Source: Planctomycetaceae bacterium
Lineage (GTDB): Bacteria > Planctomycetota > Planctomycetia > Pirellulales > Pirellulaceae
Length of the DNA stretch: 64,000 nucleotides
Assembly (NCBI GenBank): GCA_020638995.1
Contig: JACKHM010000002.1
Coordinates: forward strand, 902,902 to 966,901
Direction: 5' to 3'
In this document: positions 31,780 to 62,914 of the stretch, piece after piece
Numbering within the stretch: position 1 is the first letter of the stretch
Layout of the letters: every line of letters starts with the position of its first letter
Made by a program: the position numbers and the translations under genes
The notes under the pieces: generated by a model
Database searches by the model: none
The model's input: the letters and a program-made list of their open reading frames with translations, nothing else
What the model was told of the DNA's origin: nothing

Positions 31780-33663
31780 CTACTCCGGAACCCGTGCAAG
31801 GATTTCAAGTATTCGAGGCTCGCGCTGCTGTAGCCACCTTCCCTGCCACTCCAGTACAACGAGATAGAACCAGACTACTAGCACTGCCTCAACCAGAGAT
31901 ATCAGCAAATAGATAGGGACTCCGTTCACATCTGTGACAAAGGCAAACAATAGTTCGATGCCTAGCGCACTTGTCGCTGGTAGCAATGCGATTGGAAATG
32001 CCATCATCACGAACATCTGCACTAGGAAGAGCTTGAAATTTGGACTTGCTGGTTTCAAAGTTCCATTCGCCACGGGCATGGGAGCGAGAATCGAAGATGT
32101 ATTACCGAGCAGACAAACGAGTAAGTAGGCTGGAACCAGTTGCACCAACGTCGCAAGCAGATGGGTAACTCGCATCTCCAGGAACAACTGCAGGACGCCA
32201 AACAGTAGGACCGTGATGCATCCGGCGACGGGTACGATTGCGAGGTTCTTGCCGAGCAACACGTCGCGACGAGTAACCGGCAAAAGCACAAATGCACGGA
32301 AAGCGCCGCGATCCATCCCAAATATATTGGACATCAACTGAGCTAGTCCGAACAACATCACTCCAATGATGCCAATCGCGATGAATGGCGGCACCATTGT
32401 CAACTCTGGCCGGCGCAACTCCCGCCCCGGTCCCAGAATTGTTACGCCGCCGAAGAGCCCCACCATGATCAAGGGTGTCAGCAACGCCATCTTCGACTCT
32501 GGTGCCCGCAAGATCGACCGAAAACTCGCCAACGCTACGGCACTAACCGGCTCGGTGACGAGTGGAATCTTTGTTTCCAGGCTGTTACTCAGCTGCGCTG
32601 GCTCGTCGTTGTCGGCCCTCGCCTTTGTCGCAGCACGCTTTGGTCCCGCACGCGTGCCCGTGTAAAAACGCATGGTCGAAGCGTAGCATCGCCACAAGCT
32701 CAATCCGCCGACACCAAACATCACGATCGAAGCGAGCATGCCGGGCCAGATGCTTCCCATCGCGGCAGCGCGTACGCCGTACGGCAGCCAACCGAACGGT
32801 ACGAATTTGTTCGTCAGTAAAGCAGTATCGACAAACCCTCGGTACAGAGCCGAATTCGTCTGAGCTCTACCCGACTTGTGACGTCCATCGATCTCTTTCA
32901 ATCGACGCTCGTTCTCGGCGACATCAATTTCTCCAGCTTGCAACTGACGCATTAGCTCACGCACTTCTTCCTGATACTTCTGAGCATGCTGCTTCTGGCC
33001 TTCGCTACGACTCCGCATAAAAGCGATGTTGACGAACTGTGGCGTCTGGACTGCCAAGATAAAGAGCATCGTTATCGCGACGAGAATCGACTTGCGGCGC
33101 CGTTTATTTTCCATCAATGTTGCCAGCCATCCGCGAAGCTGATAGGTGAGCGCCGTCACCATCAAAAGAAACGAGATTAGTAATGGCAAGATCACAATCA
33201 TCTGGGGGCCCAACGCTAAGATGAACGCCAGCGCAAGTCCCAGCATGCCCGGTACGAAGACGATGATCGGCAAACTCAGTAACGAACTCGCGTAGTTCAA
33301 AAAGAACACACCCGACAGCGATAGCGGCAAATGCAACAGCCGGTCCAGAGAAAGCAACTCGGAACGCTGCAGCTCCGTCATCAGTCCGATCCCCCACACA
33401 AGGAGAAACACGGCCAAGACGGCATCCCACGTCAGCATCAGCACGTCCGGACTGAACTCTTTTGCCCTTAATACAACGGTCCCGCTAATCAGCGCGGCGA
33501 AGAACAAAACGACAGATGCGACAATTGCACAAACGACAAAGAGCGTCGTAAGGACTGCATTTAATGTTCCCGACCCTCGCCATTGGTTGCTGCTAATTCG
33601 CCAACGCAGCCAAAGGATCGTTCGCAGGTGCTCAAGACTCACGAGGCAACTCCTCGGAGTCAT
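31780..33663 (-). CDS. Polytopic ABC-exporter permease-like membrane protein
   Basis: There are many hydrophobic helices in two blocks, separated by a charged coiled-coil-like loop (QKQHAQKYQEEVRELMRQLQAGEIDVAENERRLKEID). The gene overlaps the 3' end of the upstream ABC ATPase. Candidate starts are TTG 33684, ATG 33663 and GTG 33642. Confidence 0.7.
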   Translation of the reverse strand: MTPRSCLVSLEHLRTILWLRWRISSNQWRGSGTLNAVLTTLFVVCAIVASVVLFFAALISGTVVLRAKEFSPDVLMLTWDAVLAVFLLVWGIGLMTELQRSELLSLDRLLHLPLSLSGVFFLNYASSLLSLPIIVFVPGMLGLALAFILALGPQMIVILPLLISFLLMVTALTYQLRGWLATLMENKRRRKSILVAITMLFILAVQTPQFVNIAFMRSRSEGQKQHAQKYQEEVRELMRQLQAGEIDVAENERRLKEIDGRHKSGRAQTNSALYRGFVDTALLTNKFVPFGWLPYGVRAAAMGSIWPGMLASIVMFGVGGLSLWRCYASTMRFYTGTRAGPKRAATKARADNDEPAQLSNSLETKIPLVTEPVSAVALASFRSILRAPESKMALLTPLIMVGLFGGVTILGPGRELRRPELTMVPPFIAIGIIGVMLFGLAQLMSNIFGMDRGAFRAFVLLPVTRRDVLLGKNLAIVPVAGCITVLLFGVLQLFLEMRVTHLLATLVQLVPAYLLVCLLGNTSSILAPMPVANGTLKPASPNFKLFLVQMFVMMAFPIALLPATSALGIELLFAFVTDVNGVPIYLLISLVEAVLVVWFYLVVLEWQGRWLQQREPRILEILARVPE

Positions 33664-34465
33664 GAGCTTCCTCGTCAGGCTCAATTAGCGCATTTGACGT
33701 TGAACCTCCGGCGAGCCAACTCAAGTTCGGCTTCTTATCCTCCGGCGTACCGACTTTTTCCAGGAACACCTGTTCGAGTGAACTACCTCGGCGAAGGTCG
33801 TCTAAAGAACATTGTTCCACCAGCTTGCCGCTCGCAATGATGCCGACATGCGTGCAGATCCGTTCGACGATCTCCAACACATGCGAAGTGACGAACACAG
33901 TCGATCCGCGAGACACAAAACTAGCCAACAAGTCACGGATCACGCGCGAGGTAACCGCATCAACACCCTCGAACGGTTCGTCAAGGAACAGCAAATCCGG
34001 ATTGGGTAATAGAGCGCCTGCGAGCGCTAACTTCTTCTTCATGCCATGCGAATACTCCAGCGTCAGCTTCTTGTCGACGCCTTCCAAACGCAGTAATGAC
34101 AGCAACTCCTCCGATCGGCTGCGAATAGTGTCTCGGGGCAGCAGGTGCATGCGACCCACAAACGTCAAGTACTCCCGAGCGGTCAAGTTGTCGAACAGGG
34201 CCAAATCCTCGGGGACTACTCCAATCTGCTTCTTAACTGCGATTGCTTCATCCGGATTCCATGGATTGAGCCCCAGCAACGAGACCTGCCCCGATGAAGG
34301 AGCAAGAATCCCGGTAAGCATTTTAATGGTAGTCGACTTGCCTGCGCCGTTAGGTCCCAAAAATCCATACAACGTACCTCGCGAGACTTGCAGATTCACT
34401 TCTTTAACCGCACCGAAGTCGTCAAAGAACCGCGTCAGCATCTTGGTCTCGATTGCAAAGCTCAT
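33632..34465 (-). CDS. ABC transporter ATP-binding protein
   Basis: ATG 34465 gives MSFAIETKMLTRFF. Walker A is GPNGAGKST, the signature variant is YSHGMKKKLALA, Walker B is LLFLDEPFEGVD, and the H-loop is TSHVLE. Confidence 0.9.
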   Translation of the reverse strand: MSFAIETKMLTRFFDDFGAVKEVNLQVSRGTLYGFLGPNGAGKSTTIKMLTGILAPSSGQVSLLGLNPWNPDEAIAVKKQIGVVPEDLALFDNLTAREYLTFVGRMHLLPRDTIRSRSEELLSLLRLEGVDKKLTLEYSHGMKKKLALAGALLPNPDLLFLDEPFEGVDAVTSRVIRDLLASFVSRGSTVFVTSHVLEIVERICTHVGIIASGKLVEQCSLDDLRRGSSLEQVFLEKVGTPEDKKPNLSWLAGGSTSNALIEPDEEAHDSEELPRES

Positions 34466-40513: not shown

Positions 40514-40966
40514 ATGGCTTCGTCGGTCTTTGACCTAGGTGGCGGCAACCAGCAGATCCGGTTCACTCCCGAGATGCTTCAGATGCTGTTTGCACAGCGG
40601 GAATCGCGAGATGACCGCGAAGCCTACCTGCTCATTCGGGACGGTCGACGCTGGGGAGACATGCATCGCCTGCGGCCCGGAACGTCGATCCCGGTTGGTC
40701 GCGTTGCCGCCGATGGAATCATCATTCGCGATGAACGCTGTAGCCGGATTCATTGCGAGTTCTATATGCAGGACCAGGATTGGTATGTGCGAGACCGTGG
40801 TAGCCGAAATGGCACTCGGCTTAACGGCGAGATAATCAACGTCGCACGACCGGTGAAGAACGGCGACATCATTCGGATCGGTCACACCAAGATGATGTTC
40901 ACACGCAACCTCTCCGACGTCGTTAACACGGCAGGCAGCGACGACGATTCGACGGGCGACGAATGA
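40514..40966 (+). CDS. Small FHA-domain protein
   Basis: GAGGAG lies 7 nt before ATG 40514. The canonical FHA residues are VGR, CSRIHC, SRNGTRLNG and GDIIRIG. Confidence 0.85.
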   Translation: MASSVFDLGGGNQQIRFTPEMLQMLFAQRESRDDREAYLLIRDGRRWGDMHRLRPGTSIPVGRVAADGIIIRDERCSRIHCEFYMQDQDWYVRDRGSRNGTRLNGEIINVARPVKNGDIIRIGHTKMMFTRNLSDVVNTAGSDDDSTGDE

Positions 40967-41069
40967 GAACCGCGGTAGCGCTGCGAAGCGAGATGAATCG
41001 CTCACCTCTCGACGGTAATCCCCACCCTCGCCATCACTTTCCCAGCGACGAGTGGCCGGCACGTGGAAC

Positions 41070-42260
41070 TCAGTGACTGCGACTAAGCGTGAAGATCGGT
41101 AGCATCACGGACATGCCGATCCCGCCAACGACCACGCCCATGACGGTGATCATCATCGGTTCCAACATGCTCGTGGCGGTCTTCAGTGCCGTTTCGACTT
41201 CGCCGTCGTAGTAACCGCTGACCTTCTTAAGTACATAATCGAGACGCCCGGTATCTTCGCCGGACCCGATCATCTGTATCAGTGTTTTTGGGAAGAGATC
41301 GTTCCCGGAAAGCGCCTCGCTGATGCGGCTGCCATTGGTGACATCGTCGAGCGCGTCCTTCCAGGCTTTCTCGTAGAAGTAGTTTCCGGATACCTCCGCG
41401 GACAGTTTCAATGCCTCAAGCACCGAGACACCACTCTGCACCATCGCTCCCAGTGAACGAATGCTGCGGCTGATGCAGACCTTGCGGAACATAGGGCCGA
41501 GAACCGGCATATTGAGCCGCACATAGTCGAGGACCATCCGTCCGATTTCGGTACGCCGACCGTATAAAAATCCGGCGGTCAGCACCAACAGGCCTGCAAC
41601 CCAGGCGTACCAATACTCTCGCATCGCATCGGACAAATGCATCAGGAACACCGTTGTGGACGGCAGCTTGATCCCCTTGCGAGCAAACAGCGGAGTAAAC
41701 TTCGGCATGACAAAGGTCAGCAAGAAAGTCGTTACGCTTATCGCCAGCACGAGCATCACACACGGGTAAGCTAGGGCCGAGCGAACTTTACTCCGACTCT
41801 CCAAGTCCTTCCGCATATAGTCGGCGATATGGTCAAGCATCTCACCGAGCGTCCCGGTCTGCTCACTGGCCTTGATCAAGGCAACGAAGGTCTTGTCGAA
41901 GTACCGCGGGTGGCGAGCAACCGCGGTCGAGAAACATTCGCCTGCCTCCACATCCTTCTTGAGAGCGCTAAGCAACTTGTGGAGTGTGGGATTTTCTTCT
42001 TGTTCTAACAGCCCCTGAAGCGCTGTGGCTAGATTGATTCCCGTATCCACCATGATGGCTAGCTGAGTCGTCGTATAGATGATATCGCTCTTCGACAATC
42101 GACGCGGAAACAGATTCAGGCCATCGTCTCCTTCGGAGATCTTGATCACCTGGAGGCCATCGCGATGCAACGACTGGATCGCCTCGTCGCGTGTTGCGGT
42201 GTCAATCGAACCATCGTGAGTATGCCCGAGCGGGTCGCGTGCTGTATAGTCAAAGTTCAT
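41070..42260 (-). CDS. GspF/PilC-family inner-membrane platform protein
   Basis: The T2SSF-type architecture is duplicated, with three TM segments. ATG 42260 lies 7 nt after an AGGAGG that overlaps the upstream ATPase stop codon. Confidence 0.88.
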   Translation of the reverse strand: MNFDYTARDPLGHTHDGSIDTATRDEAIQSLHRDGLQVIKISEGDDGLNLFPRRLSKSDIIYTTTQLAIMVDTGINLATALQGLLEQEENPTLHKLLSALKKDVEAGECFSTAVARHPRYFDKTFVALIKASEQTGTLGEMLDHIADYMRKDLESRSKVRSALAYPCVMLVLAISVTTFLLTFVMPKFTPLFARKGIKLPSTTVFLMHLSDAMREYWYAWVAGLLVLTAGFLYGRRTEIGRMVLDYVRLNMPVLGPMFRKVCISRSIRSLGAMVQSGVSVLEALKLSAEVSGNYFYEKAWKDALDDVTNGSRISEALSGNDLFPKTLIQMIGSGEDTGRLDYVLKKVSGYYDGEVETALKTATSMLEPMMITVMGVVVGGIGMSVMLPIFTLSRSH

Positions 42261-42271
42261 CAATCGGCCTC

Positions 42272-44011
42272 CTACCTGGCGGTTGTTGCGTCATCACTTG
42301 GTTCGGTCGACTCACCTGCGATATGCAAGATCTCCTCGACCGTAGTGATTCCCTCGCGAACTTTGCGGAAACCATCGACCTTGAGAGTAATCATCCCATT
42401 GTCGACGCCGAGCTTTCTCAGTTCGGAGATGGACGCCTCTCGAACGATGGCGTCGCGTAGAGAATCATCGATAGAGAGAATCTCATGCACACCGATCCGC
42501 CCGGAGAATCCAGTGTTACGGCAACGTCGACACCCCAGGCCCTTGTAAAAACGATCGATATCGATGCCCATCCGCTCAAGGACTTTTCGAAGTGCGCGGG
42601 GCGGATCAAACTCTTCACGGCACTTGGGACAAATTCGCCTTACTAGCCTTTGCGCCAGCACCATGTTTAGGGCCGCACTGATCAGGTAAGGCTCGACGCC
42701 CATGTTTACCAATCGCGTAATCGCACTGGCAGCGTCGTTGGTATGTAGCGTGCTAAATACAAGGTGCCCTGTTAGTGCGGCTTGAATCGCGGTACGAGCG
42801 GTCTCGTCATCTCGAATTTCGCCGACCATGATCACATCGGGATCTTGCCGCAACAACGTACGTAGCGCCTTCGAGAAAGTCAGACCAACGCGTTCCGACA
42901 CTTGAAATTGATTGATCAGCGGCAAGTGATATTCGATGGGATCTTCGACCGTGCAAACATTGTTCGACATCGACGCTATTTGATTCAGAGCACCATACAA
43001 CGTGGTCGATTTTCCGCTGCCCGTCGGCCCTGTCACCAGGACAATTCCATTAGGTGCTCGGATATGGCTTTGAAAACCAGATAGCACTTCTTCCGTAAAG
43101 CCGAGGTCCGCAAGATTCAGCGATACATTTCGCGTATCGAGGACGCGAATAACTGTTTTTTCACCTCGACTGCCGGGAAACGTGCTCACGCGCAGATCGA
43201 TCTTACGGCCGTCGAGCATGACGTGTACGCGTCCATCCTGGGGCAGGCGACGCTCGCTAATGTCCAGCGCCGCCATAATCTTGATACGGCTTGTAACGGC
43301 TGGCAACAGATGCTGGGGCACTTCCAATGCTTTGTACAGTTTGCCGTCGATGCGATTGCGAACCCGGAGGCAACGTTCAGCCGGCTCGATGTGAATATCG
43401 CTCGCACCTTCCTTCACCGCCGTGTAAATCACGTAGTTCACAAGTCGAATCACCGGCGACTGGCCGGCGACTTCTTCGATGTCCCCGATGTCGTCAATCG
43501 CATTCTCGATGAGCGTGACTTCTGTCTGATCTGAATCCTCGATAATGTCGTCGATTACGAACACTTTCGAATCCGGAAGACTCGTAATCATCCGGCGAAT
43601 GTCTTTCGTCGACGCTGCGACGATCTGAACCTCTTTGTTTGTCTGACTTCGCAACTCGTCAATCAAAAACAAATTCGACGGCTCACTCACAGCCACGGTC
43701 AGCACGTCGCGGATGCAGAATAGCGGAAAGACAAGATGCCTTTCGATGTAATCGCGGGGAAGGATGTCCGTGACCTTCGGGTCACACAGCCGAGCTTCGA
43801 GCTTGGCGTATGGAACTCCGTAACCATGGGCAAGGCACTCAACAACTTGATCTTCTGTGCAGTAATCGAGATCAACGACGATTTCACCCAGCAGCTTGCT
43901 TTTGCCAGACTGGTGTTGATGTGCGAGCGCGGCCTGAATTTGGTCGACGGTTAGGAAACCGCGTTCGACGAGGATGTTTCCGAGACGGATTGGTGCATCG
44001 AGGACAGGCAT
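42272..44011 (-). CDS. GspE/PilB/MshE-family secretion ATPase with an N-terminal MshEN/T2SSE_N domain
   Basis: Walker A is GPTGSGKST, Walker B is VIMVGEIRD, and the His box is GHLVFSTLHTND. The tetracysteine motif is CPKC...CRRC. The N-terminus is RLGNILVERGFLTVDQIQAALAHQ. Confidence 0.92.
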   Translation of the reverse strand: MPVLDAPIRLGNILVERGFLTVDQIQAALAHQHQSGKSKLLGEIVVDLDYCTEDQVVECLAHGYGVPYAKLEARLCDPKVTDILPRDYIERHLVFPLFCIRDVLTVAVSEPSNLFLIDELRSQTNKEVQIVAASTKDIRRMITSLPDSKVFVIDDIIEDSDQTEVTLIENAIDDIGDIEEVAGQSPVIRLVNYVIYTAVKEGASDIHIEPAERCLRVRNRIDGKLYKALEVPQHLLPAVTSRIKIMAALDISERRLPQDGRVHVMLDGRKIDLRVSTFPGSRGEKTVIRVLDTRNVSLNLADLGFTEEVLSGFQSHIRAPNGIVLVTGPTGSGKSTTLYGALNQIASMSNNVCTVEDPIEYHLPLINQFQVSERVGLTFSKALRTLLRQDPDVIMVGEIRDDETARTAIQAALTGHLVFSTLHTNDAASAITRLVNMGVEPYLISAALNMVLAQRLVRRICPKCREEFDPPRALRKVLERMGIDIDRFYKGLGCRRCRNTGFSGRIGVHEILSIDDSLRDAIVREASISELRKLGVDNGMITLKVDGFRKVREGITTVEEILHIAGESTEPSDDATTAR

Positions 44012-44038
44012 ACTACGATTCGCTGGCCCTTTAGCCGG

Positions 44039-44374
44039 TTACACAAAACTCTTGACCGCATCAATCACACTGTCAAATACTTCTAAGCGTTGGTTCAAAC
44101 GCGTGATTTCAAGTATTTTCCGGTTCACGTTGTTACTGCTGATAATCTTCAAGTCGCCGTCGCTCTCGCGCAAATCGTCTTGTGCATCGAGCAAGCACCC
44201 AAGTCCGCAGCTGTCGAACGATTCGGTTCCATCCAAGTCGACCACCACTTTGCGCTGATCGAGCGAGATGACGAAGTCCCTAAACTGAGTCGATACGTCA
44301 TCGCCAAGCTCTTCTGGCGCATGAACTATAACAACGTCGCCAAAGACTTCGGTCGGCATCTTCATGAACTTCAC
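44039..44374 (-). CDS. STAS-domain protein (SpoIIAA-like anti-sigma-factor antagonist)
   Basis: The protein is ~110 aa. VVDLDGTESFDSCGLGCLL contains the DSxG phospho-serine context. The GTG 44374 start overlaps the receiver gene's stop codon (GTGA). ATG 44365 is an alternative. Confidence 0.8.
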   Translation of the reverse strand: MKFMKMPTEVFGDVVIVHAPEELGDDVSTQFRDFVISLDQRKVVVDLDGTESFDSCGLGCLLDAQDDLRESDGDLKIISSNNVNRKILEITRLNQRLEVFDSVIDAVKSFV

Positions 44375-44778
44375 CCTTGCGAGGACGCATAGACTTCTTG
44401 ACGACTTTGGTAATCTTCGAGCGACATTTGAACGAGCTTGCAGAGTTCACGCGGACTGAAAGGCTTTGAGACCAGCCGAAACACGTTTAGCGTCTCGAAT
44501 ACTTCATCATGTGCCAGTTCAAATCCTTTGGCAGTGAGAAGTATTACGGGCAAATCGGCTGTGGCCTCGTTGGCGCGGATGTGCTCGATCAACTCGATGC
44601 CGGTCATTCGAGGCATCTGCAAATCCGTGACGAGAACATCGGGACGATCCTCAAGGATCATTTCCCAGGCCTCTTGACCGTCTTCGGCACAAAGCACTTC
44701 GTACTCGCGTTTCAACTTAAACTCAGCCGCCCGCCGAATATGCAATTCATCATCCGCCAAGAGAATTCGGAAACTCAT
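44371..44778 (-). CDS. Stand-alone response-regulator receiver protein (CheY-like)
   Basis: ATG 44778 gives MSFRILLADDE. The phospho-acceptor context is DVLVTDLQMP, and the conserved Lys is in LLTAKG. There is no output domain. Confidence 0.88.
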   Translation of the reverse strand: MSFRILLADDELHIRRAAEFKLKREYEVLCAEDGQEAWEMILEDRPDVLVTDLQMPRMTGIELIEHIRANEATADLPVILLTAKGFELAHDEVFETLNVFRLVSKPFSPRELCKLVQMSLEDYQSRQEVYASSQG

Positions 44779-44846
44779 CGTTCGCGCCCCGTTAGCAAGA
44801 AGTTTGTGTTGTGTCGTCCCGATCGTTGCGTCTTTACACCGTCGCG

Positions 44847-46331
44847 TCAGCACTGCATGCGAGAATGACTGGGCAGCGAAACACGGAAAACGCTTCCCGT
44901 GCCGAGTCGACTAGAAACTGTCAGCGACCCGCCGTGAACGTCTTCGACGATGTGTTTTGCCAAAGGCAAGCCGAGCCCAGTGCCCGGTGCCATTTTCTGA
45001 TCTTTCTTAACTCGATAGAACTTGTCGAATACTTTTTCACAGTCCTCGTCTGACAACCCGACTCCGGTGTCTTCAACCTCAAAGACTGCGGCGTTCTCTT
45101 CCATCCGGCTACGCAGCGTGACTTTCCCTCCCGGCTCCGTATACTTGATCGCGTTCGAAAGCAAGTTGATGGCGGACTGCATCAACATATCGCGGTCAGC
45201 CAGCACGCCGAGGTACATCGGACTTAGGTCGACGACGAGCTTGATGTCCTTCTGGTCGCTGGACGGTTGAACAACGCTATGTGCATTCTCCAGCAATTCA
45301 TTCAAGGACTGATTTTGTTTGTCAACCTTTTCAACACCGGCCTCGATCCTTGCCAGGTTAAGCAAGTTTTCGATCAATCGTTGCAGGCGGTCGGCTTGCG
45401 TATCGATAACGCTCAGAAACTCTTCGCGTGTCTCGTCGTCTTCAGCTTCTCCATCGAGCAGCAGTTCGACATAGGCGCGAATGCCCGCCAATGGCGTCTT
45501 CATCTCGTGGCTGGCCGCGGAGACAAACTCCGCGTGACGCTTTTGAATACCTCGTTCGCTGCTGATGTCGGTCAGTACGGCAACGACACCGGTTACCTCG
45601 GCGGCACCTTCGACGTCTTCTCCCCTTAGAGCACGGCAACTAGCTCGAAACCAGCGAGACGGCCCATCCGCGGATGCGATCTCCAGTTCGCACGTTCGAT
45701 GGGTTACGGACTGACGCTTTAACGTGTCGTTCAAGGCGTCGACCAACGTCGGACATTCGAATCGCTGTGACGCAAGGACAGGATCGGCTTCATCGATCGT
45801 GAACGCGAATAGTTCGCATGCTGCATGATTCGCCCAGACAATCTCGCCGTACTGATTAGTTGCCAACGCCGCATCAGGTAGACCGTCCGCAATGTCGTTT
45901 AGCCTCGAGTACTCGTTGCTCACACGACGCAATCGCACTTCTGCGCTGGTCCAATGATGCTCTGCCTCGTCGGCGCGCGTACCATATTCGACAAGACACT
46001 CTCGTATTCGTGAAAATATTGGTCGCCAGAGATTGCTCTCCGGCAACTGTGGGAGCGTACCGTTCTGATCGGCATCGGCCAGGTCATGATGATCTAGCCG
46101 ACATAACATGTCGATGTAACGCTGCGCAATCTTTTCACTGCCCAACTGACGCATTGCATCAAGCCGAAATATTGCTCCTGCGGACGCCAAGCACCCCACC
46201 GCCAACAACATCCGCAAACCCAAATTCGAAGCCGGCAATGATGGCTCGATTACCCACGCCAGCGCGAGACCAATGGTAATGGCAAGCAACAACTTGACCT
46301 CGTAATGTTGTACTTGTTTTCCAAAGAGCAT
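44847..46331 (-). CDS. Membrane sensor histidine kinase (2 TM, PAS, HisKA, HATPase_c)
   Basis: Two N-terminal hydrophobic helices are present. The region DAALATNQYGEIVWANHAACELF is PAS-like. The H-box is SHEMKTPLAGI, and the N/G boxes are NAIKYT, DTGVGL and GTGLGLPL. Confidence 0.9.
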   Translation of the reverse strand: MLFGKQVQHYEVKLLLAITIGLALAWVIEPSLPASNLGLRMLLAVGCLASAGAIFRLDAMRQLGSEKIAQRYIDMLCRLDHHDLADADQNGTLPQLPESNLWRPIFSRIRECLVEYGTRADEAEHHWTSAEVRLRRVSNEYSRLNDIADGLPDAALATNQYGEIVWANHAACELFAFTIDEADPVLASQRFECPTLVDALNDTLKRQSVTHRTCELEIASADGPSRWFRASCRALRGEDVEGAAEVTGVVAVLTDISSERGIQKRHAEFVSAASHEMKTPLAGIRAYVELLLDGEAEDDETREEFLSVIDTQADRLQRLIENLLNLARIEAGVEKVDKQNQSLNELLENAHSVVQPSSDQKDIKLVVDLSPMYLGVLADRDMLMQSAINLLSNAIKYTEPGGKVTLRSRMEENAAVFEVEDTGVGLSDEDCEKVFDKFYRVKKDQKMAPGTGLGLPLAKHIVEDVHGGSLTVSSRLGTGSVFRVSLPSHSRMQC

Positions 46332-50178: not shown

Positions 50179-50805
50179 ATGATGGCAGTTCATTGTGCAA
50201 ATTGTGGTGAGGAACTCATGGGATCCGTCAACCGATGTTGGCGGTGTGGCAAAACTTTTGTCGCGCAACGCTCGGAGTCGGGGCTACCGCCGATTCGCAG
50301 ATTGCCGCCCAAAGAACTGGGGGCAGGAGTATTGATCGCCGAACTCGCAGACGATCCGACGACAACATCGGACACAGAGTTGTCTCCAGCCACATCCGCT
50401 GTCATCACTCGTACCAGTTCGGTCCGACGCGGATCACCGTTTGGTGATCGTGGTACGGCAGTTATCGAAAACATCGGATCGGAATGCGCGCACGAACCAG
50501 CCTGTGATCGAGATTCAAAGCATCGTCAAACTAGTGGTGGTGCCGCCTGCGCGCTGCTGAGTCTTCCCATCGGAGTCATCAGCTTTGTAACGGCGTTCTT
50601 ACTCCCAATCGCAGGAATTCTATTGGCGGTATTCGGGATCGGTGTCAGCATCTGCGGCCTCAATAGCCGCCGACGCCGCTCGGCCATTGCTGGTCTACTG
50701 TTCTGTTGTCTCAGTCTTGCAACCTCAATGGTCACCGAATCGATCGACCTCTACATCGATCAAAATGGCATTGCCCCCTGGAAATCCAATCAGAATCTTC
50801 CGTAG
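50179..50805 (+). CDS. Zinc-ribbon plus TM-helix hypothetical membrane protein
   Basis: The N-terminal CANCGEE...RCWRCGK forms a CxxC...CxxC ribbon. Three hydrophobic helices sit in the C-terminal half. Confidence 0.6.
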   Translation: MMAVHCANCGEELMGSVNRCWRCGKTFVAQRSESGLPPIRRLPPKELGAGVLIAELADDPTTTSDTELSPATSAVITRTSSVRRGSPFGDRGTAVIENIGSECAHEPACDRDSKHRQTSGGAACALLSLPIGVISFVTAFLLPIAGILLAVFGIGVSICGLNSRRRRSAIAGLLFCCLSLATSMVTESIDLYIDQNGIAPWKSNQNLP

Positions 50806-53160: not shown

Positions 53161-54891
53161 CTACTCGATTTCAATTAACTGCTTAAGTTCGCCACCGTCT
53201 GGGAACTGGGCCATAACGTATTCCGAACTGAAGTGTTGTCCGAGGACACTGCGGCTGGCCGTTGGCCCGAGCGAACGATAGATGAGCCATTGCCGTTTGC
53301 CGCATTGAATTCGATACCCGACCGCGACGTCCGCAGGCAGGATCTGAAGTTGCTGTGCAACTGTCAATCGTCTCCAGGTCAGTTGCTTCGAAAACCGCTT
53401 TGGTTTTAGATCGAGGAACAGCGGAGCCATCAGGCACTTCGCGTTCGCAGACTGTCGAAGCTGAAGCCCGCTCGCAGTTTGCTCGAGCGCTCCATCGACG
53501 CGATCGGCTCGCCACTCAGGGAGTTGCAGGGGCAAGACGGCAGCCACCGGTTTCCGGACATGCAGAATCCCTTCGCGAGTCTCGCCCGCTGCCAAGAAGG
53601 AGACGCCTTCTCTAAGTGGCAGCGTAAATCGATGGTCAATCTGTGCTACCGACTCGCCCATAATCGCATCGGCAATTACAAGAAAGCGTTCCTCCCGAGC
53701 GAGCGTGAACTGACGCTGAACCTTCCAGCCGTTTTCAAATCGGGATTCAATTTCGAGGTAGTCCAAGTCTTTGTCCGAGTACCAACAAACTTCCTCCCAA
53801 TCCTGTTGCAGTTCCAGGAGCTTGCCATCAATTCGAAGCTCGGGGTTGCATAGACCTGAAAAGACCGTTTCTTTACCGCAGTTCAGCTCCACTTGGACTT
53901 CGCGGTTCGCGTATGAAACCATTAACTGATCGCTGGACCGGTCCCATTCACGGCGCAGCACCGCCAACTCGGCCCACTCGGAATTCGTAGCGGGGGAGGG
54001 CAGGGAGTCTCGACGATCGCTTGTGGCTCTGCGGCCAGGAAGCATCGAGTCCGCGATTTCGTCGTCGTCTTTGTCCTCCACCAGCGTCAACGCAGCATCT
54101 ATCAGCGAGGGCGACGAGGGAAAATCGGCGGAAAACACTTGCGTGCCATCGTTCCGCAAAAGCCGTAAAGATTGCCGGATCAGCCACTCATACTGAGTTT
54201 TTGCGTCCTTCGTGAAACAGTTTCTCTTCATAGTTCGCCCCATGTACAGACAACGAGTCCAGCAGGCGAGTAGCGGTCGCGCGATGGACAGGTGCTTTGC
54301 GTGAGGCATCCCCTCGCCATCCAAGAACTCGGTCAGGCCGTGAGAAAGGGCATCTCGTGCGGGCTCAGCGAGCGTTTTGCAAGCCGCGAGCTCTGGCAAG
54401 AGGTAGGCCAGGGTCAGCGGTAATTCACCCGCCAAGAGTTGGTGTGGAAGTGGCGACGTTGACTCCGCCTTTGCGGCATCCGACGCTACTCCGACTAGTT
54501 GGTCGAGTAGTTGCGACCAGGGGGCAGCCGGGAGCAAATTCGCCAGTGATGGCAGTGCATTACACCAAGCAAGGGCTTCGAGAGCAAAGGAGGCTGATAT
54601 CTCGCGGACGCGGGCGGATTCCAACCATTGCTCAAGATCCGCGGCAATTTCGCTGGCATCACTGGGTTTCCGGAACGCTAGGCTCTGAAGTCGATTCAGC
54701 AGATCTTCCGTCACGGAACCTTGACACTCGCCCGGTAACGACCACAAAAGTGGCTTCGCTTGTTTAATGGCGATCAGCTTGGCAAGCGGGATAGGTTTCG
54801 ACCGCTTGGCGAGATATCTCGTCCAATCCTCCCAACGATCGGGGCTGACCTTTCCTTTGGTGGCTTTTTTGGGTTGCTCCACAGTCGCCAT
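53161..54891 (-). CDS. Conserved hypothetical protein (about 576 aa)
   Basis: This is a long clean ORF on the same strand, 26 nt upstream of yggS. ATG 54891 (MATVEQPKKATKGK) is preferred over 54999. I could assign no motif. Confidence 0.6.
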   Translation of the reverse strand: MATVEQPKKATKGKVSPDRWEDWTRYLAKRSKPIPLAKLIAIKQAKPLLWSLPGECQGSVTEDLLNRLQSLAFRKPSDASEIAADLEQWLESARVREISASFALEALAWCNALPSLANLLPAAPWSQLLDQLVGVASDAAKAESTSPLPHQLLAGELPLTLAYLLPELAACKTLAEPARDALSHGLTEFLDGEGMPHAKHLSIARPLLACWTRCLYMGRTMKRNCFTKDAKTQYEWLIRQSLRLLRNDGTQVFSADFPSSPSLIDAALTLVEDKDDDEIADSMLPGRRATSDRRDSLPSPATNSEWAELAVLRREWDRSSDQLMVSYANREVQVELNCGKETVFSGLCNPELRIDGKLLELQQDWEEVCWYSDKDLDYLEIESRFENGWKVQRQFTLAREERFLVIADAIMGESVAQIDHRFTLPLREGVSFLAAGETREGILHVRKPVAAVLPLQLPEWRADRVDGALEQTASGLQLRQSANAKCLMAPLFLDLKPKRFSKQLTWRRLTVAQQLQILPADVAVGYRIQCGKRQWLIYRSLGPTASRSVLGQHFSSEYVMAQFPDGGELKQLIEIE

Positions 54892-55098
54892 CGTCCAGAT
54901 GCCTCCATGTCGTATAATCAGAAGTCGTTCGCCTGCGACGAGCCAATTCGCTTCGTTTGTCGCCAGTTGTGAATCACGGCAAGTTACGTATCTTAGCAAT
55001 CAGGACACACCCTGCCTGCCCCTGAACTGGTAGTTTTGAGCGTCTCGAACGAACCAGAAATCGACCACAGAACACGAAAGTACCGAAGGAGCTGTACC

Positions 55099-55872
55099 TT
55101 GATTCAAACACGAACCGCGTTGTTGGCGATCGTTTTCATTGTGAGCTTCGGAGCGACGTGCAATTCCGATGATGTCAATCAGCCTGACGCCGCAAGCGAT
55201 GCCCCGCCAGAACGGTTAGTCAAGCTATCGAAGGATCATGACATTTGGGTCGACCCAAAACGAAAGCTCGTCGTCGTCGATGGGACCGTGGCGCTTCGCG
55301 ACGGTGCACTAGAGATGTTCGCTTGCCCGAAAGGCTCAAAAGAACACGAATCAATCGTCGCCGTTAACAGCACCGCGCAACTCGTTCACGCCGGGTTGCT
55401 GGCGGTTGGGGCAATCGCCGGCCATCCAGTTCAGTTCGATCCTAAGTACGTTCCCGCGACTGGAACTACCATCGAGATTCTCGTGTTGTGGCAAGATGAT
55501 ACGGGCAAGCATAAGGTCCGTGCACAAGAGTGGGTGAAAGATGCGAAGACCGGCGAGGTGATGAAGCAGGCCTGGGTGTTCGGTGGAAGTGGATTCTGGA
55601 CGGACGAGACGACTGGAGAAAAGTACTACCACGCCGACGGTGGCGATCTCATTTGTCTATCGAATTTCTCGAGCGCAACGCTCGATTTGCCGGTGGAAAG
55701 CAGTCAAGCCAACGACGCATTGCTGTTTTCGGCTTTTACAGAACGGATTCCTCCGCGGGGAACCAAGGTTCGATTGGTTTTGATTCCTCAATTGAAAGCA
55801 GCCACCAAAAGTGATGCGCCAGCAGACGCATCGTCGAAGAGTCCATCAAGCGTAAAACTCCTCGAAAACTAG
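55099..55872 (+). CDS. Secreted or lipid-anchored hypothetical protein
   Basis: AGGAG lies 7 nt before TTG 55099, giving MIQTRTALLAIVFIVSFGATC (signal/lipobox-like). The conserved-looking core is LVVVDGTVALRDGALEMFACPKGSKEHESIVAV. Confidence 0.6.
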   Translation: MIQTRTALLAIVFIVSFGATCNSDDVNQPDAASDAPPERLVKLSKDHDIWVDPKRKLVVVDGTVALRDGALEMFACPKGSKEHESIVAVNSTAQLVHAGLLAVGAIAGHPVQFDPKYVPATGTTIEILVLWQDDTGKHKVRAQEWVKDAKTGEVMKQAWVFGGSGFWTDETTGEKYYHADGGDLICLSNFSSATLDLPVESSQANDALLFSAFTERIPPRGTKVRLVLIPQLKAATKSDAPADASSKSPSSVKLLEN

Positions 55873-56388
55873 AAGGCCGATGTACAGCAGTAGTTGGCCT
55901 GCACCGAGCGCCGTGCCCACAATGCCCATCCACAGGCCCCACCAGGTAGCGCGACGACCTCCTTCTTGCATGGCTCCCGCTTTAATTGCCGCGTGGTCGT
56001 TCTGGCCCATGATCCAGGCGGGTACGGTCACTGCAAGTCCAATTAACTGTCCCGCCAGCCCATAAATCATTCCGTCCAGAAAATTGCCGACCGCCAGAAT
56101 GGCGATAACGGTGACGACAATTGCGATCAGCTGGATCGAGCAGCCCAAAAGCCCAAACCACCAAACTAGCGCGCCGCGATTCGGCAGAAAGGCCTCGTAG
56201 TCACCTGGTTGGAAGGGCTGGATCTTTGAAGCTTCGCTCGCGACATACGGATTTGATTGGGAGGCAACATCACTCGGTAACTCGAGCGGCGCCTCGCCCT
56301 GTTCGCCAAAACGATTTTCGCCGCCCTCGCCCTCGAACGGGTTTTCCCGATCAGCGTTTGGGTTTCGAGGAAACTTGAACTTCGCCAT
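55846..56388 (-). CDS. Small membrane protein (acidic N-terminal region plus three TM helices)
   Basis: ATG 56388 gives MAKFKFPRNPNAD. Three hydrophobic helices occupy the C-terminal half. Its 3' end overlaps the convergent gene by 27 nt. Confidence 0.6.
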   Translation of the reverse strand: MAKFKFPRNPNADRENPFEGEGGENRFGEQGEAPLELPSDVASQSNPYVASEASKIQPFQPGDYEAFLPNRGALVWWFGLLGCSIQLIAIVVTVIAILAVGNFLDGMIYGLAGQLIGLAVTVPAWIMGQNDHAAIKAGAMQEGGRRATWWGLWMGIVGTALGAGQLLLYIGLLVFEEFYA

Positions 56389-56480
56389 GGCAGTGCTTGC
56401 TCTAACCGCGTTCTTTGATTGGCGGAAACTGCATTTGACGCAACTTCCAGTTCCATGCATTGTGAAAGACTTGCCGATCA

Positions 56481-58424
56481 GTGACAACCGCGTCACAGGT
56501 GCGTCTCCAAGACGCCTCCTGCAGCGCACAATCGTCGAGCGAATCACGGAATTGCTTGCTCGGTAGGGGTAGATCGGCTACCGTGATAATCGAAGTCAAC
56601 TCGTTCCAGGAGCCACTCGTGCCAGCCGAACAATCATCGAACCGGAAGCCCGTTTCTAAACGCAAGCCTACAGCAAAGCAGGGCGACTCTAACAGCAAGC
56701 GACCGACCAAGACTCGAACCGTGGATAACTTAGAAGCCTTGCTTCACTTACTGGACGATGACAAAGCTCCAGCCCCAACCTCGAAACCAGACAAGTCCGT
56801 GACCAGCCGGACGAATAAGTCCCGCAGTGCAAGCCGGGTCGAAACAGCCAAGCCCGAGACTGGCTCGACTTTCATGCAGGAATTAGCTCGTGCTAGAGAC
56901 GAAGTTCATAAAGAACGCCGTTCACGGCTGGAGATTGAACAGAAGTTCGCCTCTCTCAACGACGAACTCCGTCACGTGAAAGAGCATGAAGCCTCTCGCG
57001 CAACAGAATTTGACGCCGAGCGCAAGCACGTGCGGCGTCAAATTGAGGCACTTGAAAGACGCTGCGAGAAGCTTCAAGCAACGCGTTTTAATCTGGAGTC
57101 ACAACTGGACTCTGAGCAGCAAGAACGTGAAACACTCCTCAGCGAAGTCGATAATTTGAATGCTCAACTTCGGGAGGCGATGTCGCAACGAGACGAGAAC
57201 TTGTCTGAGTTAAAATCCTTGCGTCTTGAAAACGAGAATCTGCAATCCGAGTTTGTTTCTTCGCGTTCTTCTTGGGAGGAAGCGGTCGCAGCTTTACGAA
57301 CTCAAGTCGAAATGCTCACCAACGAGCGTGAGCAACTCATGCACGATCGCGAAGTGCAATCCGAGCGTTATCGGGAAGTCATAGCGGAGCTAAAAACGCA
57401 AATGACCACTTATCAAACGCAGCTCCTATGTGAATCGGAGACACGAGAAGCGATCGAGCGTGACTTCGCGGAGTTTGCCACACAAGCTGAGGAAGTTAAA
57501 GCAAATCACCACGAGACAATCGGCGAACTGCAGCAAGATGCGATTGATTTACGTGCCGAACTGACAGCCGCCCGCTCGAGGCTCGAGATTGAATCTTCAG
57601 CACGTTCGCGGATCGAAGAAGTACTCAGTACGGCGGAGGACAACTACAGAGACCTCTCGGAGCGGAGCGAGCGGAGAGCGGAAGCCGCCGAGGAAGTCCG
57701 AAAGGAGCTAACGCAGAATATCCAAGCACTTGAAACTCGCCTTGTCGCCGCGGGCGACAGAATCGCGGAACTTTCCGAAGATCAGCAACAACTACAACAA
57801 CAATTAACCGACGAACGACATGCACGAACTAAAGCAATCGTACTTCGAGATGAAGCTTTGGCGACGAGTGAGCGGCTTGAACGGAGAGTGGCAGAGGTTA
57901 CGCAGAAACTAGCCAGCAAGCGCAGCGAACTTGATACGCGAAGAGACTCATCGGAGCCGATTCAGGATAAAATGGATCGCTTGGAAGCCGACGTCGCCCG
58001 ACTGCGAGTGCAACTCGCAGAGTCTTATGAGCAACTCGGAATCGCTCGATTACGGCTAGCAAACTCAGAACGTGATCGTGATCATGCGCAGCAACGCGAA
58101 AGTGACGCGTCCCGGCGCACCGCGGAGCTCGCCGAAGTCGTGCGAGAGTTGCAATCATCCGTACAACGCGAAGCCGCAGCGCGTCGAAAGGCGGAAGCGA
58201 TCCACAGGCGCGAGGCGGACAACGACGATGCACAAGCTGCCTTGTTTGCCGCAGAACAAAAGATCGATCGCCTCTCGCGTGAACTAGCCGCCAGCAGAAG
58301 TACCGAGGAGGCTTATCAGCAAAAGGCAATTCGAAAAGTGCAACAGGCCCAGCAAGAGACAAACGAGCTCCGCGAGCGATTATCGAAACTCGAGCGACGA
58401 GCGAATGAAGATTTAGGTTCCTGA
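56481..58424 (+). CDS. Long coiled-coil protein with a basic N-terminal region
   Basis: About 480 aa are Glu/Arg/Leu/Gln-rich heptad-like sequence with no nucleotide-binding motifs. The start is uncertain (GTG 56481 or GTG 56583). Confidence 0.6.
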   Translation: MTTASQVRLQDASCSAQSSSESRNCLLGRGRSATVIIEVNSFQEPLVPAEQSSNRKPVSKRKPTAKQGDSNSKRPTKTRTVDNLEALLHLLDDDKAPAPTSKPDKSVTSRTNKSRSASRVETAKPETGSTFMQELARARDEVHKERRSRLEIEQKFASLNDELRHVKEHEASRATEFDAERKHVRRQIEALERRCEKLQATRFNLESQLDSEQQERETLLSEVDNLNAQLREAMSQRDENLSELKSLRLENENLQSEFVSSRSSWEEAVAALRTQVEMLTNEREQLMHDREVQSERYREVIAELKTQMTTYQTQLLCESETREAIERDFAEFATQAEEVKANHHETIGELQQDAIDLRAELTAARSRLEIESSARSRIEEVLSTAEDNYRDLSERSERRAEAAEEVRKELTQNIQALETRLVAAGDRIAELSEDQQQLQQQLTDERHARTKAIVLRDEALATSERLERRVAEVTQKLASKRSELDTRRDSSEPIQDKMDRLEADVARLRVQLAESYEQLGIARLRLANSERDRDHAQQRESDASRRTAELAEVVRELQSSVQREAAARRKAEAIHRREADNDDAQAALFAAEQKIDRLSRELAASRSTEEAYQQKAIRKVQQAQQETNELRERLSKLERRANEDLGS

Positions 58425-58587
58425 ACGGCGTTTGTGGCCTTGATCGCCGTTACAAACCGCAAGTCACGCATACAAGTTGCTCTCCCGTCGGAACGGTAGA
58501 CGACGTCCGTACCTTCGCCTCAAGCTGTGCAACTGCTGGTTCCGAAGAGTCTCTAGATACTCTTTCTCACGGCCTCCGCGTGTCCGA

Positions 58588-59397
58588 ATGGCGAAGCAAA
58601 CGAAGAACAAGCCCGAGCGACGCCGCAGTGGCGACGCGAATTTGAATTCGAGTTTTTCTCGATATTGGAACGAGTCGGCTCGTCCGTTGGTAAGCCTCGC
58701 ATTCGTCGCTCCAATGATCCTTGCTTACGAAGGGGGATTGGTGGCCATGGGGCCACAAATGATGAGAAACGGCGCTGACGTGTGGCTGCGTCAATTGCTG
58801 GAGTGGCTGGGGTTCAGCCAGTACTTTTTGCTGCCCGTGCTGACATGCGCGTTGCTGCTCGGTTGGCACCATCTCAATCAAGAGCGTTGGTCGATACGCT
58901 GGGTTACGATGTATGGCATGTTGTTCGAATCCCTGCTCTTTGGTGGATTCTTGCTTTTTGCTGCTCAAGCACAACATGTGATGTTGGCAGCAATCGAAAC
59001 GAATAGTCCCCAACTCCTTTACGTTCATGCCGAAAAAGCAATAAGTCATTTCATCGCCTATTTGGGCGCGGGGATATACGAGGAGGTGTTGTTTCGGGTT
59101 ATGTTATTTCCCGCGACAGCCGCCTTGCTTCGCATCATCGGAACGCCTCATCGCACAAGCTGGATTGTTGCGATGTGTCTGTGCAGTGCTGCTTTCGCGG
59201 CGGCGCATTACCAACTTGACTTGAAGATCGGGAGCTATCACCTCATGACTTTGCATGGCGAACCTTTCGACTGGACAAGTTTTATGTTTCGCTTCGGTGC
59301 AGGTATCTTCTTCTCAACACTCTTGCTTGCCCGCGGCTTCGGGATTACCGCAGGGACCCATGCGTTTTACGACATTCTTGCGTCACTGCCCACGTAA
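58588..59397 (+). CDS. CPBP-family (CAAX-type) intramembrane metalloprotease
   Basis: ATG 58588. The protein is multi-TM with motif 1 EEVLFR, motif 2 FAAAHY (FxxxH), and motif 3 HAFYD. Confidence 0.8.
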   Translation: MAKQTKNKPERRRSGDANLNSSFSRYWNESARPLVSLAFVAPMILAYEGGLVAMGPQMMRNGADVWLRQLLEWLGFSQYFLLPVLTCALLLGWHHLNQERWSIRWVTMYGMLFESLLFGGFLLFAAQAQHVMLAAIETNSPQLLYVHAEKAISHFIAYLGAGIYEEVLFRVMLFPATAALLRIIGTPHRTSWIVAMCLCSAAFAAAHYQLDLKIGSYHLMTLHGEPFDWTSFMFRFGAGIFFSTLLLARGFGITAGTHAFYDILASLPT

Positions 59398-59476
59398 TCA
59401 AAGGGCGCACAAAACGCATTCGGACGAGTGTGTCAAGTCCCAAAACCGAGTTGTAGATCACCGAAAGAAAGTGCGT

Positions 59477-59505
59477 TTGTTGACGCTTCGAACTGAGTCT
59501 ATAAT
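59477..59505 (+). promoter_or_regulatory. Sigma-70-like promoter candidate upstream of the 59584 gene
   Basis: A perfect TATAAT sits at 59500-59505. TTGTTG at 59477-59482 gives a 17-nt spacer. An overlapping TTGACG at 59480-59485 gives only 14 nt. Planctomycete promoter rules are poorly known. Confidence 0.25.
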
Positions 59506-59583
59506 GGGCGTCATCACTGTTACTATTCCGTCGAATTAATAAGTCGATCGACTAACCATTCATCCGCGGCGAGGGTTACTTTC

Positions 59584-60123: not shown

Positions 60124-60177
60124 CCATCGCCTGTTCTGAGAGGAAGAAATACGTTAATCACATTGAGAGTTCAAATC

Positions 60178-60648: not shown

Positions 60649-60691
60649 CGCAGAATCGTATCAGAGTCGCCTGCCGCAGCAACCACCAAAC

Positions 60692-61381: not shown

Positions 61382-61418
61382 CCAGCCCCTCCCTGAGGCA
61401 CCAGTTGCGGCGACCAAG

Positions 61419-62886: not shown

Positions 62887-62914
62887 CAGCGACGCTAGCA
62901 TCAGGCAAGCACCT

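Follow-up and report, generated by a model that had tools for sequence, protein, structure and literature searches.

A type IVa PilB/PilC-like motor pair encoded with a conserved histidine kinase, receiver and STAS protein in Planctomycetota

What is the role of a secretion-type ATPase that is encoded together with a two-component system and a STAS protein, with no pilus or secretin genes around it? This question is raised by a stretch of 64,000 nucleotides from a Planctomycetaceae bacterium (contig JACKHM010000002.1, positions 902,902 to 966,901), the whole of which is called the window here. Five tightly packed genes on its minus strand encode a sensor histidine kinase (HK), a response regulator (RR) consisting of a receiver domain, a STAS protein, a GspE/PilB-like ATPase and a GspF/PilC-like platform protein, and a gene for a small FHA protein converges on the platform gene. 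A preliminary description of this locus regarded the ATPase and the platform as an orphan motor, possibly something new, gated by a signalling module that combines a phospho-relay, a STAS switch, recognition of phospho-threonine by the FHA protein and cyclic di-GMP (c-di-GMP). Several questions follow. Is the gene block conserved? To which machine does the motor belong? What would a STAS protein do beside a motor ATPase? Do c-di-GMP and the FHA protein take part? Here, we address these questions by comparison with related loci, which are labelled by L-numbers (L002, L126, etc.).

The block consisting of HK, RR, STAS, ATPase and platform genes recurs in more than 70 independent loci, which is far above chance. 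The explanation that we favour, and hold to be somewhat better than evenly balanced, is that the pair would be a type IVa PilB/PilC motor split from its structural genes and furnished with a lineage-specific HK/RR/STAS sensory insert that regulates it. The features of the block are as follows (all on the minus strand except the last).

44847-46331, minus strand: sensor HK with two N-terminal transmembrane helices, a PAS domain, HisKA with the H-box SHEMKTPL, and HATPase_c (Pfam).
44371-44778, minus strand: stand-alone CheY-like receiver, 135 amino acids; Response_reg (Pfam, E 4e-22), output domain absent.
44039-44365, minus strand (GTG start possible at 44374): STAS-only protein, 108 amino acids (PF01740, E 2.3e-9).
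42272-44011, minus strand: PilB-type ATPase; T2SSE (E 5e-133) and an N-terminal MshEN domain (Pfam), Walker A GPTGSGKST, CxxC...CxxC.
43916-43987, minus strand: motif I of the MshEN c-di-GMP domain, R9...Q32, RLGxxLVxxGFLxxxxIxxxLxxQ (NCBIfam NF053729).
43823-43894, minus strand: variant second MshEN half-site, KLLGEIVV..YCTEDQV.ECLA, PilB residues 40-63 (alignment).
41070-42263, minus strand: PilC/GspF platform with two T2SSF domains (Pfam, NCBIfam).
40514-40966 (open reading frame from 40499), plus strand, convergent: small FHA protein of about 150 amino acids (PF00498, E 2.9e-16).

The conservation of this block was traced from three sides. In a PilB-anchored survey of 80 genome loci, chosen for greatest similarity to the PilB of the window, an open reading frame (ORF) for a STAS protein lies directly upstream of PilB in 16 loci, all 16 of which belong to Planctomycetota (Planctomycetia and Phycisphaerae). 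No STAS-like ORF was found upstream of PilB in the non-planctomycete loci of this set, in which secretins, TPR proteins, receivers or small membrane proteins precede PilB. A STAS-anchored metagenome scan, with an alignment of five closer sequences as the query, yielded 45 loci, 39 of them informative in having at least 300 nt downstream; PilB is the next gene after STAS in 37 of the 39, and those with upstream DNA have a receiver (or a GGDEF gene) and a kinase there every time. Database look-ups revealed the HK-RR-STAS-PilB run in nine more loci (L126-L128 and L130-L135), and the run is also complete in L129, L136 and the FHA-anchored L138; STAS immediately precedes PilB in L137 too. Orthologous kinases share the PAS-HisKA-HATPase architecture and are found upstream of STAS in every related locus with upstream DNA, the receiver is kept next to the HK in the clade of the window, and PilC comes after PilB in all related loci, or after PilB-PilT in those of the Gimesia type. 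The outer flanks vary from locus to locus, and thus the conserved unit is HK-(RR)-STAS-PilB-PilC itself. Because the receiver is missing from several Phycisphaerae loci, the kinases of which are not hybrid, the minimal invariant set is HK, STAS, PilB and PilC. Gene-neighbourhood conservation across Planctomycetota, where the block is strictly syntenic, thus bears out the earlier proposal that a two-component pair and a STAS protein are wired to the motor pair.

The survey also brought up two arrangements in which STAS is not involved. Receiver-only RRs are encoded directly upstream of PilB in metagenome-assembled genomes of Deltaproteobacteria and Omnitrophota (L022 634-1011, L023 9354-9779, L048 9597-9965); a bare receiver beside pilB is not limited to Planctomycetota, but STAS is in this sample. 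In a STAS-less PilB-PilT-PilC clade (Phycisphaerae/Tepidisphaerales; L008-L018, L032), the position of STAS is occupied by a single-pass membrane protein of about 190-260 amino acids with a conserved C-terminus (..GFTIE.I....V.V...G..F.L.M).

The arrangement in the window itself was examined closely. The five minus-strand genes and the FHA gene are present with the coordinates and domains that had been assigned to them (ORFs, Pfam). The sequence reads 68 nt from the HK stop codon to the ATG of the RR and 27 nt from the STAS stop codon to the ATG of the ATPase, and the stop codon TAG of the ATPase is embedded in AGGTAGGAGG, in which GGAGG overlaps the stop, 8-11 nt ahead of the platform start. 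These two gaps and the overlap of a Shine-Dalgarno sequence with a stop codon stand as described earlier. The GTGA overlap reported between the receiver and STAS genes can also be seen, as the stop codon TGA of the RR shares GTGA with the possible GTG start of STAS at 44374, but orthologues favour the ATG at 44365, 9 nt further on, which leaves a gap of 5 nt rather than an overlap. The window stems from an activated-sludge planctomycete, and independent contigs from two other activated-sludge studies cover 39.5-42.8 kb and 42.8-48.5 kb with zero differences, confirming both outer junctions of the block, and thus the arrangement is not an assembly artefact. One other activated-sludge run (X4) has indels of 1-2 nt at 41315, 42652, 42863, 43927 and 45971, in pilC, pilB and the kinase gene; three other runs are identical to the window at these five positions, and the indels most likely reflect errors of assembly or sequencing and not pseudogenes. 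When 40-47 kb was scanned, terminator-like matches were at the shuffled expectation, and eight promoter-like matches were found versus a shuffled mean of 3.9 (standard deviation 2.0), none of them at an informative position.

To which machine does the motor belong? In the Protein Data Bank, the ATPase matches the PilB structures of Myxococcus xanthus and Geobacter over residues 8-564 (E 1e-143 to 1e-147), and Walker A and a tetracysteine motif (CPKC...CRRC) are seen in its translation. It could instead be supposed that the ATPase and the platform power a type II secretion-like system or another non-pilus type IV filament system (pseudopilus). The NCBIfam scores lean slightly this way, with 596.9 bits for the ATPase against GspE (TIGR02533, cut-off 630.25) and 348 bits for the platform against GspF, both slightly above those against PilB and PilC and all below cut-off. 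In addition, the secretins upstream in relatives have GspD-like N0/STN domains, and a protein of about 217 amino acids in the position of PilP matches T2SSB weakly in L003 and L100. However, the clusters hold PilM, PilN and PilO but not GspC, GspL and GspM, the retraction ATPase PilT is encoded between PilB and PilC in Gimesia-type loci, and GspE structures align only with the C-terminal two thirds of the ATPase, from around residue 152 onward, whereas the full-length match is PilB. A non-pilus system is thus quite improbable. The gene context of relatives settles the assignment as a pilus motor, as the same block there continues from pilM-N-O-P-secretin: on sequence grounds, the ATPase and the platform are PilB and PilC, which would serve a type IVa pilus-like machine as its extension motor and as its platform in the inner membrane, and not a new machine.

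In three loci whose PilB is 93% identical to that of the window (L126-L128), the order on one strand is PilM, a 250-amino-acid protein, PilO, a 241-amino-acid protein, secretin, HK, RR, STAS, PilB and PilC. A Thermoguttaceae chromosome (L002, PilB 75% identical) has pilin-PilM-PilN-PilO-217 aa-secretin-TPR-HK-RR-STAS-PilB-PilC, and Gimesia (L003) has PilN-PilO-218 aa-secretin-TPR-HK-RR-GGDEF-STAS-PilB-PilT-PilC. The kinase is likewise preceded by a secretin in L090, L098, L100 and L119, and in the Phycisphaerae loci the block runs on as PilC-PilM-PilN-x-x-pilin-pilin. Association with pilM/N/O, secretin, pilT and pilin genes is therefore found in L002, L003, L126-L128 and Phycisphaerae; in the window there is only pilC. 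The Gimesia-type pilus cluster stands beside a DnaA-like gene, dnaN and gyrB (L003 15664-19023; L005 5465-11753), and is probably near the replication origin.

How, then, did the motor of the window come to look isolated? In the window as well as in L129, L132-L134 and L138, other genes occupy the place that the secretin has in L126. The upstream flank of the window matches that of L133, with an alanine racemase-like protein, a YTV protein and a 208-amino-acid zinc-ribbon membrane protein, and in the window a HEAT/cytochrome c gene is inserted next to the kinase gene, between it and the gene of the 208-residue protein; judged from the flank, L138 has this insertion in common. The 208-residue protein (50179-50805, plus strand) has no Pfam match, an N-terminal zinc-ribbon-like motif (CxxC...CxxC) and C-terminal transmembrane helices, and its gene is kept in L129, L132 and L133, where it diverges from that of the kinase. 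As far as gene order can tell, the orphan look is the product of recent cluster fragmentation by genome rearrangement. The notion of an orphan motor or of something new accordingly had to be given up, as the same block adjoins pilM-N-O-P-secretin in L002, L003 and L126-L128; the block is part of a canonical pilus cluster in these relatives but not in this window. The locus thus illustrates how fragmentation of clusters in planctomycete genomes can make ordinary machinery look orphan.

The block is flanked by genes that are common in planctomycetes, those for PSCyt/PSD1 and DUF1501 at one end and that for the HEAT/cytochrome c protein at the other. The absence of pilus and secretin partner genes, noted earlier for at least 5 kb on either side, extends to the whole 64 kb: no prepilin motif was found by a motif scan, tblastn with the proteins of relatives detected no PilT, PilM, PilN, GGDEF, HD-GYP or secretin, and Pfam scans, which covered 39 out of 49 non-overlapping ORFs with a length of 100 amino acids or more, detected no pilus structural, PP2C, RsbW-like or Ser/Thr kinase domains. 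A 357-amino-acid ORF at the edge of the window (62915-63988, minus strand) was considered as a secretin and rejected; it has only a sub-threshold STN match near its C-terminus and no tblastn match to the secretins of relatives, and is probably unrelated. The rest of the window (1-30000 and 55000-64000) encodes housekeeping proteins: MnmE, YidC with a PDZ insert, HemB, a HemL-like aminotransferase, TruB, FtsK, a SufS-SufE fusion and RsmH. For several large ORFs (927-2579, 31780-33684, 53161-54999 and 56481-58424), Pfam gave no match.

The three proteins encoded ahead of PilB have the residues expected of signalling proteins. Two-component features are present on both sides of the pair: the HK combines an intact HisKA H-box (SHEMKTPL) with a catalytic domain, and the translation of the RR retains the acidic pocket D9/D10, the phosphorylatable D52, T82 and K105. 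The receiver was rightly described as lacking an output domain, as Response_reg is its only Pfam domain, and its closest solved relatives are the single-domain RR468 and CheY. The STAS protein is uniformly 108 amino acids long and is matched by more than 1000 database clusters; the 120 best homologues are all stand-alone STAS proteins with generic names only. D51-S52 is conserved in 12 of 13 sequences of one alignment and in more than 90% of the 32 of another, and a family-specific motif, AV[KR]SF, is conserved at the C-terminus. A monomer model was made with AlphaFold (AF2), using database homologues as the alignment (predicted local distance difference test score, pLDDT, of 79), and searched with Foldseek. 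The top matches of this model are TM1442, SpoIIAA and RsbV, and Ser52 is predicted to lie where helix 2 begins, which agrees with SpoIIAA and RsbV.

Does the STAS protein then belong to sigma-factor control rather than to the motor? It could be a classical anti-sigma-factor antagonist, with Ser52 set by an unlinked RsbW-type kinase and a PP2C phosphatase, that frees a sigma factor for pilus genes and never touches the motor, its position before pilB only ensuring co-expression. Planctomycete genomes carry many partner-switching genes. The fold of the model with its closest structures, the conserved D-S phospho-site at the start of helix 2, the name 'anti-sigma B factor antagonist' in database sources and a REC-STAS fusion gene 10 kb from the pilus block in L136 all speak for such an antagonist. 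This fusion gene (1-534, minus strand) has no detectable similarity to the RR of the window, and it indicates that REC and STAS are combined in one protein in these genomes. On the other hand, the STAS protein scores 49.5 bits against the anti-sigma-factor antagonist superfamily model TIGR00377, below the cut-off of 53.45, its invariant neighbours are an HK and PilB, and genes for an RsbW-type kinase, a PP2C phosphatase or a sigma factor are absent from the cluster in every one of the more than 70 loci, a sign of partners within the cluster itself. The earlier remark that STAS has no kinase or phosphatase beside it therefore applies to the 39 scanned ORFs of the window as well as to the block of every related locus. 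STAS regulators that have been characterised usually have the gene of their kinase as a neighbour, as in rsbV-rsbW, spoIIAA-AB, btrV-btrW and hsbA-hsbR (2021 STAS review). We consider a classical antagonist rather unlikely, and prefer a regulatory role of STAS at the motor.

Is c-di-GMP an input to this motor? The N-terminus of PilB scores 53.4 bits against the c-di-GMP motif domain model NF053729 (cut-off 38, NCBIfam). The published MshEN domain consists of two tandem 24-residue motifs, RLGxx(L/V/I)(L/V/I)xxG(L/V/I)(L/V/I)xxxxLxxxLxxQ, with a 5-residue spacer (PMC5013675). Motif I of the window fully agrees with this pattern, and its residues R9, L10, G11, L14, L29 and Q32 are invariant in all 42 PilBs of the clade to which the window belongs (clade B). 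Motif II does not agree even with a relaxed pattern (L40, D49 and G63). All 42 clade-B PilBs keep it as a variant, KLLGE..V...[YF]CTE[DE]QV.ECLA, with Leu for Arg, mostly Glu or Asp for Gly, and Glu or Gly for Gln, and Phycisphaerae orthologues are closer to canonical. Compared with MshE of Vibrio cholerae (PMC5013675), the motif from R9 to Q32 is in register with Arg9...Gln32, but the spacer is 7 residues instead of 5, and motif II has other residues in place of its first Arg, its central Gly and its last Gln. Two cysteines of motif II, eight residues apart, are nearly invariant (C51 in 40 and C59 in 38 of the 42); instead of being a degenerate c-di-GMP site, the variant might respond to redox state or to metals, or might form a helix that binds proteins. 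In Gimesia-type loci, a GAF-GGDEF gene stands between the receiver and STAS genes, with GGEEF intact in L003 and degenerate in L006, and in Phycisphaerae this place is taken by genes for an HD-GYP protein, in which the HD as well as the GYP motif is intact, and for a membrane GAF-GGDEF protein that is degenerate. Since HD-GYP and GGDEF genes occupy the same slot in relatives, a link of this PilB/STAS family to c-di-GMP signalling is plausible. The c-di-GMP input proposed earlier is thus supported by the invariant motif I and the genes of relatives, but not as a fully competent site, motif II being non-canonical.

The remaining candidate is the FHA protein. Its convergent position right after the platform gene was confirmed, orthologue alignment places its true start at ATG 40514, and its signature GR...SxxH...NG is intact. 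According to the preliminary description, phospho-relay, STAS switch and phospho-threonine reading by the FHA protein gate the motor as one module. The intact signature would suit this idea, as would the same convergent position after PilC in seven relatives with differing outer flanks (L126, L132-L136 and L138; gap from 11 to about 150 nt), six of which (L126, L132-L136) have a PilB 86-94% identical to that of the window. However, tblastn found no FHA gene near the block in any relative whose PilB is 83% identical or less, including at least 12 with DNA beyond PilC; the FHA gene is on the opposite strand with no Ser/Thr kinase nearby; and three close orthologues, spanning 63-82% identity, lie without a pilus block nearby. 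In two of these (L139 and L140, FHA 82% and 77% identical), the FHA gene is the last of a co-directional PSD1-DUF1501-LamG/PQQ string that has no pilus genes in its vicinity, and in the third (L141) it adjoins a histidine-biosynthesis gene. Two simple views were dropped on the way: that FHA is never conserved, as it stands beside PilC in close relatives with differing flanks, and that it belongs to the block, as FHA-anchored look-ups found orthologues without one. The FHA gene looks like it sits at a junction of two neighbourhoods, where rearrangements cut on either side in a neutral decay of synteny. Thus, the single module with FHA as a component, found beside PilC only in close relatives, is the least probable of the alternatives. 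From its distribution, FHA is probably not part of the module, and a functional tie to the motor of any kind is unlikely, if less so than the full module.

What the FHA protein does may be hinted at by its N-terminus. The family is narrow, with about 33 database clusters, and its orthologues, only 51% identical overall, have invariant N-terminal motifs M[AT][ST]SVFD and RF[ST]PEML..LF (40514-40603). The protein matches GarA/OdhI structures in the Protein Data Bank, and it is like actinobacterial GarA/OdhI in its length of about 150 amino acids, in its C-terminal FHA domain and in an N-terminal [ST][ST]SVF[DR] similar to the phosphorylated ETTSVF. It differs in phylum and in scoring far below the NCBIfam cut-offs, with 40.7 bits versus 200 for OdhI and 67.6 versus 125 for FhaB. 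The resemblance of M[AT][ST]SVFD to the phosphorylated ETTSVF suggests, by analogy, a self-binding phospho-switch that would be driven by a Ser/Thr kinase. A protein of about 1180 amino acids with Laminin_G_3 and a PQQ beta-propeller is encoded between DUF1501 and FHA in L126 (14142-17696), L135 (13982-17521), L136 (14100-17645), L139 (4118-7897) and L140 (4205-7759); its gene is missing in the window, and a 184-amino-acid remnant is left in L138. A large beta-propeller protein beside a pilus motor recalls PilY1-type adhesins.

How might the HK, RR and STAS protein act on the motor? In the mechanism that we propose, a sensory insert comprising the membrane-anchored PAS-containing HK, the receiver and STAS would have entered the cluster between pilB and what was ancestrally its secretin end. 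The HK would sense a cytoplasmic or membrane cue and phosphorylate the receiver, which, having no output domain, would work by protein contact. STAS would act on the motor as a small adaptor or a regulatory subunit, bound most likely to the N-terminal MshEN domain of PilB, and would gate pilus assembly post-translationally, its state being set through the conserved Ser52 or through the receiver. In the ancestral circuit, the kinase may have been linked with c-di-GMP signalling locally at PilB, as suggested by genes for an HD-GYP phosphodiesterase and a mostly degenerate GAF-GGDEF protein in the same slot of related lineages; the window would retain only the kinase, the receiver, STAS and one intact c-di-GMP half-site, HD-GYP and GGDEF having been lost. 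A bolder version, which we regard as possible but doubtful, is that STAS represents a new class of PilB cofactor, an HK/receiver-controlled phospho-adaptor that binds the variant MshEN domain to switch pilus extension on and off, and would take the place of PilZ/FimX-type factors in Planctomycetota. Of the gating module proposed in the preliminary description, then, the linkage stands through conserved synteny, the FHA part falls, and direct gating of PilB by STAS is a matter of inference.

Several observations weigh against a split motor regulated by HK, RR and STAS. As to the motor, pilus structural genes other than pilC were not found in the 64 kb of this organism, the ATPase scores 586 bits against the PilB model TIGR02538 with an equivalog cut-off of 675.65, and the platform scores slightly higher with the GspF than with the PilC model, below both equivalog cut-offs. 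As to STAS, none of its 120 best homologues is a STAS-PilB (T2SSE) fusion, and the putative phospho-serine fits partner switching with an unlinked kinase equally well. The non-canonical motif II makes binding of c-di-GMP by this PilB uncertain. As to the gene block, two short metagenome contigs (L105 and L114) do not have PilB after STAS, and a rough neighbour-joining tree places the STAS-linked PilBs in two clades with a STAS-less clade between them, implying loss or double gain. RNA coverage of the putative operon amounts to one metatranscriptome contig of 169 nt within pilB from one run.

What seems new here is a phylum-specific HK/REC/STAS input to an ordinary type IVa pilus motor; the machine itself is known. 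Cofactors of type IV pilus motors are well known from proteobacteria and cyanobacteria, and include PilZ, FimX, c-di-GMP, CheY-like regulators and SgmX. Full-text literature searches, incomplete in coverage, found no paper that connects STAS or an 'anti-sigma factor antagonist' to PilB, PilC or type IV pili, a 2024 review of PilB cofactors includes neither STAS nor FHA, and a 2021 review of STAS-only proteins includes no pili. The STAS-PilB pairing was thus not found in the literature, in keeping with the earlier remark that no described system with this combination was known to its author. A strictly adjacent HK-STAS-PilB arrangement throughout the phylum provides a testable lead to the control of attachment and surface behaviour in Planctomycetota, and it bears on the roles of STAS domains outside sigma-factor control.

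Known systems resemble this locus in different parts. The type IVa pilus motors of M. xanthus and Geobacter share with it full-length PilB similarity, an MshEN-type N-terminus, a zinc-type CxxC pair and a two-domain PilC, and the loci of relatives hold pilM-N-O-(P)-secretin and pilT together with the block, like the pilB-pilT-pilC clusters of Geobacter. Such type IVa clusters differ in having the NtrC-type PilR: as a test for a PilS-PilR pair, the 135-amino-acid regulator was found to be receiver-only, with no sigma-54 AAA+ or DNA-binding domain, and the same is true of all orthologues; moreover, the STAS gene is inserted directly before pilB here. As another kind of resemblance, MlaB chains are among the Foldseek matches of the STAS model, with a TM score of about 0.55, weaker than SpoIIAA or RsbV. 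MlaB is the STAS subunit of the MlaFEDB ATPase complex, a stand-alone, operon-encoded protein that binds its ATPase. The two cases share a STAS protein that stands alone and is encoded with a membrane machine, but MlaF, an ABC ATPase, belongs to another ATPase superfamily.

Three regulatory systems offer closer parallels to the proposed control. In Synechocystis, CheY-like regulators bind PilB1 (bioRxiv 10.1101/2021.06.11.447907; PMC11181946), so that response regulators without a DNA-binding output contact a pilus extension ATPase, as we propose here; however, the cyanobacterial CheY-like/PATAN system is chemotaxis-like, with CheA-type kinases and PATAN domains, whereas this locus has a classical HisKA kinase and a bare receiver. 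In Pseudomonas aeruginosa, the HptB-HsbR-HsbA-HsbD pathway involves a phosphorelay-controlled STAS protein, HsbA, that binds the cyclase HsbD in a phospho-serine-dependent manner and influences motility and pilus assembly (PMC5085249). A phosphorelay linked to a STAS protein is common to both, as inferred here from genes, but HsbR has PP2C and kinase domains that act on HsbA while the receiver here has no further domain (Pfam), and the gene of HsbA does not adjoin pilB, nor did HsbA have an effect on twitching (PMC5085249). In Xanthomonas, a chain leads from RpfC to RpfG (HD-GYP), GGDEF proteins, the adaptor PilZ and PilT/PilU, independently of cyclase activity, and PilB, PilZ and FimX form a complex (PMC3749722, PMC8389850). 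In the Phycisphaerae relatives, genes for HK, RR, HD-GYP, degenerate GGDEF and a small protein are lined up beside PilB in that same order. The parallel differs in that the small protein is STAS and not PilZ, that REC and HD-GYP are separate genes, and that the planctomycete chain is a putative one, read from gene order.

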